Made by a program: the position numbers and the translations under genes. From IMG/VR virus record IMGVR_UViG_2695420897_000008: DNA of 39,495 nucleotides; one strand, given 5' to 3'. This document shows, one piece after another, positions 577-1,130 of the stretch (position 1 is its first letter; every line of letters starts with the position of its first letter). Source of the stretch: a virus. Its lineage: Duplodnaviria; Heunggongvirae; Uroviricota; Caudoviricetes. The notes below the pieces were generated by a model. The model searched no databases. It worked only from the letters and a program-made list of their open reading frames with translations, and was not told the DNA's origin.

Positions 577-1130
577 ATGCTTATTGGCTATGTACGCGTA
601 TCAACAAATGACCAGAACACCGATCTGCAACGTAATGCACTGAACTGCGCGGGATGTGAGCGGTTTTTTGAGGATAAAATCAGTGGCACTAAGTCCGACA
701 GACCGGGGCTTAAAAAACTGCTCAGGACACTATCGGCAGGAGACACTCTGGTTGTCTGGAAGCTGGACAGGTTGGGGCGCAGTATGCGGCATCTTGTTAC
801 GCTGATAGAAGAGTTGCGTCAGCGTGGCGTGAATTTCCGAAGCCTGACTGACAGTATTGATACCAGCACCCCAATGGCCGTTTCTTTTTTCATGTCATGG
901 GTGCCCTGGCTGAAATGGAGCGTGAACTGATTGTTGAACGAACAAAAGCTGGACTGGAAGCTGCTCGCGCACAGGGACGAATTGGCGGTCGCCGTCCCAA
1001 ACTTTCATCAGAACAATGGGCGCAGGCCGGGCGACTAATTGCATCAGGCGTTCCTCGCCAGAATGTGGAGATCATCTATGATGTTGGCGTATCGACTTTG
1101 TATAAGAAGTTTCCGGTCGGAGATAAATGA
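577..1130 (+). pseudogene. Pin/Gin/Hin-family serine DNA invertase, split by a 1-nt frameshift
   Basis: N-terminal resolvase catalytic domain (MLIGYVRVSTNDQ...VVWKLDRLGRS...SLTDSIDTS) in one frame, C-terminal HTH part (MGALAEMERELIVERTKAGL...GGRRPKL) in another. Shift lies within 874-896, near the GG at 876-877 or the T-run 885-890. RBS AGGGGA upstream of the ATG at 577. Confidence 0.8.

Follow-up and report, generated by a model that had tools for sequence, protein, structure and literature searches.

The pin gene at positions 577-1130 of the DNA studied here is a fixed pseudogene, and the tail-fibre segment beside it has nevertheless been inverted in related prophages, most likely by a Pin-like enzyme supplied in trans; we would put the probability of this reading at roughly three in four. 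The window, that is, the whole stretch of DNA that was analysed, is a complete E. coli short-read draft contig of 39,495 bp (CYAN01000046.1 of GCA_001285125.1), and its layout was read against that of strain 12009. The pseudogene lies at the right-hand end of a myovirus-like prophage that is inserted beside yfhH. The features referred to below are collected in Table 1.

Table 1. Positions of the features of the invertase gene and of the rearranged tail-fibre region in the window.
Feature	Positions	Strand	Remarks
End of an IS66-family element, tnpA side	1-112	-	Adjoins the invertible segment and marks an end of the contig
Start (32 nt) of the cassette's tail-fibre assembly gene	113-144	-	Interrupted by the end of the IS66-family element
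Silent alternative tail-fibre C-terminal cassette	148-549	-	gp53-like C-terminal domain, without a joined fibre N-terminus
Crossover site adjoining pin	496-521	+	TTCTCCCAAACC AA CGTTTATGAAAA; same as the right site of 12009
N-terminal ORF of pin	577-930	+	117 codons, start MLIGYVRVSTNDQ; Resolvase residues 1-100 plus 17 out-of-frame residues, then TGA (ORF listing)
Putative enhancer-equivalent stretch	595-666	+	Matches the recombinational enhancer annotated within P1 cin
C-terminal remainder of pin	870-1130	+	Frame 3; helix E from residue 99, HTH_7, stop; mechanical ORF 897-1130 (77 aa)
Site of the 1-nt deletion	876-877	+	GG, versus GGG (ATG GGN, Met100-Gly101) in every intact relative aligned
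Heptamer T_TTT_TTC	885-891	+	In register with the truncated frame that starts at 577
Truncated expression-site tail-fibre gene	5956-6510	-	First 161 aa equal those of the 232-aa fibre of strain 129
Direct repeat of 368-514	6032-6178	+	First 128 nt of the cassette plus a half-site
Second crossover site	6160-6185	+	Direct repeat of 496-521

One nucleotide has been lost from this Pin/Gin-type serine invertase gene, with residues 1-100 read in frame 1 and all later ones in frame 3. The Resolvase domain (PF00239, E = 1.4e-36) was found by Pfam in the N-terminal ORF at 577-927, and HTH_7 (PF02796, E = 2.4e-12), together with the last 28 positions of PF00239, lay in the second ORF, in frame 3; the catalytic domain and the DNA-binding C-terminus are thus in separate frames, as the original prediction had stated. 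When PinE, Gin and Cin were used in tblastn, their residues 1-105 aligned to frame 1 (577-891) and residues 99-184 to frame 3 (870-1127), with E values from 1e-95 to 1e-74, and no further invertase-like match was found in the window with K-12 PinE, Mu Gin and P1 Cin. The serine-nucleophile motif GYVRVSTNDQ, which marks the catalytic domain of the invertase family, is the same as in these three enzymes. The uninterrupted ORF of approximately 184-193 aa that unites catalytic domain, helix E and C-terminal HTH in members of the family is missing here.

The nucleotide comparison with pinE, gin and cin that had been proposed as a check was carried out over positions 820-960 with five intact genes, namely the same-locus allele of ECONIH2, the B27 allele, K-12 pinE, P1 cin and Mu gin. 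The six-gene alignment contained one single 1-nt gap, the intact genes reading ATGGGN and the window ATGG-CC, with a G lost in codon 101. Together with the ORFs, the Pfam domains and the tblastn frames, this gap bears out a real frameshift. The T-run TTTCTTTTTT (881-890) equals that of the intact B27 allele, and therefore the shift is placed at the GG end, away from the T-run; a deletion inside the T-run was tried as a candidate and ruled out on the same ground. The shift had been mapped to 874-896, in or near a GG and a T-run, and of these two locations the GG end stood while the T-run did not. Re-insertion of the G gives one PinE-like ORF of 184 aa, whose product is 91% identical to K-12 PinE, 97% to P0020, which was the nearest intact protein seen, and 76% and 79% to Gin and Cin, respectively. 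Judged from its sequence, the window gene is a pseudogene of the Pin/Gin/Cin/Hin family, nearest to e14 PinE and without functional membership. Because the frameshift leaves the catalytic domain in one frame and the remaining part of helix E with the HTH in another, the enzyme encoded in cis has almost certainly lost its activity.

The window is a short-read draft contig and its lesion lies in a short G run, so that a sequencing or assembly error, raised at the outset as a homopolymer misread, might be held responsible for the frameshift. However, 14 complete E. coli genome records, among them O103:H2 12009, ETEC H10407 and O45:H2 FWSEC0003, carry the 554-nt sequence at 100% identity, and the exact 117-aa and 77-aa products each occur on at least 1000 public contigs (the 117-aa product in 1456 index blocks). 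The chance of an error is therefore negligible, and this suspicion was refuted. The same allele bears the RefSeq label 'pinE, recombinase family protein, frameshifted'.

Other isolates were searched for an intact allele, which was another of the checks proposed, and none was found. Among 5426 complete genomes, the records at least 99% identical to the gene numbered 15, every one of 554 nt, with no intact copy of this allele at that identity. Similarly, the exact repaired 184-aa protein was missing from approximately 15 billion sequences, although both of its fragments are present on at least 1000 contigs. There are also signs of further decay. The residues N163 and E165 (K163N, A165E) were seen in none of 135 full-length homologues, 131 of which have A165; the start codon of the COL60J copy has changed from ATG to ATA, and COL60J and CS6L share an extra P160H. 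The same deletion was found in related prophages at another chromosomal site, adjoining pphA in COL60J and CS6L, and at a further one adjoining a GST/rnf locus, as a second copy within one genome (L014). The CS6L allele is a mosaic, with 30 differences upstream of position 781 followed by identity through the deletion (breakpoint near 780), and therefore the lesion has also moved by recombination. Given that no intact form was found and that decay has continued, the allele is a true, fixed pseudogene, old and widespread and still decaying. As a separate observation, the changes not shared with P0020 (T144S, P145S, K163N and A165E) all fall downstream of the frameshift and none upstream when 577-876 and 879-1130 are compared; the changes at 986-1008 cluster like a recombination patch, and the numbers are small.

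A different way for the gene to retain a function would be recoding, in which a -1 slip on T_TTT_TTC, or insertion of a U by the RNA polymerase in the T6 stretch, yields a low level of full-length flipping enzyme. If true, the widespread 'pseudogene' would be a strongly down-tuned but live switch enzyme, and continued flipping would be explained even in genomes without any other close pin homologue. Invertases act at very low abundance. The heptamer is in the correct register, and a -1 slip at 885-891 re-enters the correct frame, giving a product that is full length and changed only by G101A, R102V and F103S. UUN-type heptamers are shift-prone in E. coli, reaching up to about 10 times the 0.055% background without stimulators (PMC4066793), and 'savior' compensation of indels is a known precedent from other systems (PMC5009743). 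Nevertheless, the three residues that the slip would replace lie at the start of helix E and are invariant (G101 and F103) or nearly so (R102, in 132 of 135 homologues). No RNA structure was found downstream of the heptamer, the fold of 880-975 being no more stable, at -24.1 kcal/mol, than shuffled sequences, whose mean was also -24.1 (z = 0.01), nor was any Shine-Dalgarno-like motif seen by eye upstream of it. The T-run is ancestral and no new feature, N163 and E165 are unique downstream changes at conserved positions, and the start codon is gone from one relative (COL60J). Each of the 135 full-length homologues is a single ORF, and the two-frame state is limited to one allele lineage. Of the features expected of a programmed -1 frameshift, the in-frame slippery heptamer is present, and both the stimulator and a conserved two-frame layout are absent. 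Taken on both sides, recoding is very unlikely to be what keeps the segment moving.

The original prediction had concluded that the frameshift locks the switch. The part concerning the cis-encoded enzyme stands; the lock itself does not agree with the genomes that carry the identical allele. Strain 12009 has its crossover sites as inverted repeats of 20 nt that lie 1837 nt apart; they enclose two assembly genes and two fibre C-terminal cassettes, one of them the alternative, and pin lies immediately outside the segment. Five of the complete records with the identical allele match the window leftward beyond the site, and nine break exactly at 495/496; in these nine, the same proteins are annotated on opposite strands. 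The comparison of O103:H2 12009 with O103:H2 129 gave a left flank of 2061 nt, a right flank of 5616 nt and an interior of 1837 nt, all 100% identical, the 1.84-kb interior being exactly reversed within 9.5 kb of otherwise identical DNA. In addition, a non-homopolymer T insertion, GATGAA[T]ATAGT, near window position 3364 is present in 2011C-4251 (reversed) and in GCA_000703305 (window-like) and is not found in 12009 or 129, which gives a four-gamete pattern with orientation. Both orientations occur on both backgrounds, and therefore at least two inversion events followed the frameshift. Since relatives with the identical allele carry the segment in both orientations (five versus nine), the frameshift, as far as these genome comparisons go, does not lock the switch by itself.

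It could be argued that the frameshift does lock the switch and that the two orientations stem from independent deletions or from replacement of pin by homologous recombination. This would agree with laboratory cultures of K-12, where the e14 P segment stays locked once pinE is deleted (PMC12529663), and recombination within pin does occur, as in CS6L. This account is unlikely, in view of the complete identity of 12009 and 129 across 9.5 kb save for the exact reversal, and of the presence of both orientations in each of the two sub-lineages. It also needs an intact haplotype, which is missing from the 5426 complete genomes and from the approximately 15 billion proteins, and as this haplotype was not found, inversion once the frameshift had arisen is a much more economical account than independent deletions or repeated exchanges of pin. 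Rare homologous or short-homology recombination by the host between the inverted repeats of about 20 bp, without any invertase, has also to be considered. The repeats have 14 identical bases and similar flanks, and the products would look the same in sequence. Against this stand the two or more events in a narrow clade, seemingly too frequent for 14-bp homology, and breaks located exactly in the site core, as predicted for site-specific exchange, which make host recombination a quite improbable source of the inversions. Inversion after the frameshift is also favoured by one genome (GCA_900448385.1) that harbors two prophage copies on the same 5.36-Mb contig, L013 and L014, which adjoin yfhH and the GST/rnf locus; pin is frameshifted in each copy, and the two invertible segments are oppositely oriented.

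Action of an enzyme in trans on the segment beside a dead pin is the reading that we prefer, and it may be envisaged as follows. Loss of the G of codon 101 ends translation after 117 residues, so that little of the oligomerisation helix E and nothing of the HTH is left in the product. For this reason, and from what is known of the family, the 117-aa product would be unable to bind the crossover sites or to form the tetramer. The crossover sites and the 5' enhancer-equivalent stretch remain intact, and the segment is not frozen on an evolutionary time scale. Another Pin-like invertase in the same cell would then be the agent, as PinQ is for the e14 P segment: overproduced PinQ of prophage Qin, which is 38% identical to PinE, inverts that segment in K-12 (PMC12529663). 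In the same strain, deletion of pinE leaves the P segment locked at laboratory scale despite the native pinQ (PMC12529663), so that inversion in trans may happen seldom and show up only when lineages are compared. It also weighs against the reading as a whole that the loss of function of the 117-aa product is deduced from its missing parts and that the direct-repeat layout described below comes from one draft contig, whose 10-nt junction could be a gap-closing join. On the same side, the trans-acting invertase was not identified in the O103:H2 genomes by a nucleotide search, to which PinQ-like enzymes of 38% identity are invisible. By distant blastn, the O103/O45 chromosomes showed just two or three pin-like places each, several having one place besides pin; a near-universal weak pin match elsewhere corresponds to a 168-nt pinH remnant near ypjA.

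The crossover sites on which such an enzyme would act are intact. The site at 496-521 is identical in 15 of 16 positions to the published repeat of the e14 P segment (PMC12529663), and the crossover sites overall are identical in 15-16 of 16 positions to the published e14 repeats. The stretch at 595-666 has 55 of 72 positions in common with the P1 enhancer and 64 of 72 with K-12 pinE, and is a candidate for a Fis-dependent enhancer; lying upstream of the frameshift, it is intact in cis. The site at 6160-6185 is recombinant, with left arm and flank as in the pin-side site and right arm as on the fibre-gene side. In the window, the two 26-bp sites are direct and separated by 5.66 kb that include pin and yfhH-yfhB-tadA-mltF'; in the relatives with the same allele they are inverted (1837 nt apart). 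It had been claimed that the enzyme could not further rearrange these directly repeated gix sites, and the direct geometry was confirmed. Wild-type invertases are limited to inversion between sites on one molecule (PMC3798978), and thus these sites are not an expected substrate even for an intact enzyme.

The switch of this particular contig is additionally disabled by its direct sites, its truncated fibre gene and the IS66-family element abutting the cassette. Positions 113-6041 contain the 32 nt of the assembly gene, the silent cassette, the site, pin, two uncharacterised genes, yfhH, yfhB, tadA and the 3' part of mltF. The insertion of the IS66-family element 32 nt into the assembly-gene coding sequence was found in none of the complete genomes. 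The first 10 nt of the direct repeat (6032-6041, GCTGATATTC; compare 368-377) overlap the truncated mltF, and the fibre gene, after its 161 aa, runs out of frame into mltF DNA. The sequence from 6159 to approximately 39382 is the remaining prophage, reversed with respect to 12009, and 39383-39495 is the end of a different IS66-family element; the contig therefore breaks in IS66-family repeats at both ends.

The simplest origin of this layout that could be constructed is a tandem duplication of a 5664-nt unit via the 10-nt overlap GCTGATATTC, followed by an inversion between the fibre-side site and the distal copy. This model needs a second copy of 5.5 kb, which a short-read contig should not span, and a layout derived from two prophages suffers from the same difficulty with long repeats. 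A single inversion and the reintegration of a circle were rejected as origins, as neither leaves the initial 128 nt of the cassette duplicated. The junction at 6032-6041 occurs in no complete genome and, in the gene index, only in this contig. A common gap-closing program merges by default at overlaps of 10 nt, and the junction may reflect either a real microhomology event or a gap-closing artefact. Because of the implied second copy, the junction unique to the contig and the 10-nt overlap, the layout is taken as unconfirmed. If the join were artificial, the presence of both junction types in one assembly would point to a culture of mixed orientation.

Some other traits of the prophage were observed. 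Between pin and yfhH there are two AT-rich ORFs, at 1211-1858 (minus strand, 215 aa) and 1917-2258 (minus strand, 113 aa), which are kept in related prophages; neither had a Pfam or PADLOC match, and they are probably phage cargo. A TIR-domain protein encoded at 38523-39284 (plus strand) corresponded to the PADLOC candidate defence family PDC-S35 (E = 7e-109) and to the Pfam CAP12/Pycsar TIR. Its gene lies at the far end of the prophage, adjoining the IS66-family end; FDAARGOS_1059 and 14EC029 have it, but most related prophages have it replaced. The early region (26000-39381) encodes a VapE-like primase/helicase, a family A DNA polymerase and a DUF2800/PD-(D/E)XK nuclease, to which the relatives add an Nmad5-type nucleotide-modification protein. 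Prophages whose tail-fibre switch is Mu/P2-like do not usually carry a replication module of this kind.

With regard to its significance, the frameshift is a common E. coli pseudogene and ordinary biology, and its novelty is low since the lesion is already flagged in public annotation (RefSeq). The direct consequence is small, as this is a common decayed prophage gene. It must be considered, nevertheless, that a broken neighbouring invertase should not count as proof of a fixed phase-variable segment. The repeated flipping beside an identical allele fits the recent evidence that Pin-type enzymes of other prophages act across elements. Additionally, the draft contig illustrates how rearranged a region of this kind may look, host genes lying between direct sites.

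Among the known systems, the closest is PinE of the cryptic prophage e14 of K-12, with the 91% identity of the repaired protein given above. The e14 P segment has the same order, with the constant part of the fibre, site, variable cassette, tfa, tfa', cassette', site and pin. In comparison with e14 PinE, the window gene has the 1-nt deletion and extra substitutions, and its prophage is a different, larger myovirus-like element adjoining yfhH; in this contig, its sites are direct instead of inverted. Gin of Mu and Cin of P1, which act on the G and C segments, are 76-79% identical at the protein level, and their sites have the same 12-2-12 architecture, the Mu site TTCCTGTAAACCGAGGTTTTGGATAA aligning with the crossover sites of the window; the position of the putative enhancer within the 5' part of the gene is also that annotated in P1 cin. 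Both gin and cin are intact and experimentally active, whereas the enzyme of the window is truncated. The cin of phage RCS47, annotated as part 1 and part 2 (H108-H109), is another gene of the Cin/Pin family in two parts, although a different gene. Finally, as a model for flipping beside a dead invertase, PinQ acting on the e14 P segment (PMC12529663), in K-12 and when overproduced, is the case of an enzyme encoded elsewhere that flips a fibre segment with the same sites.
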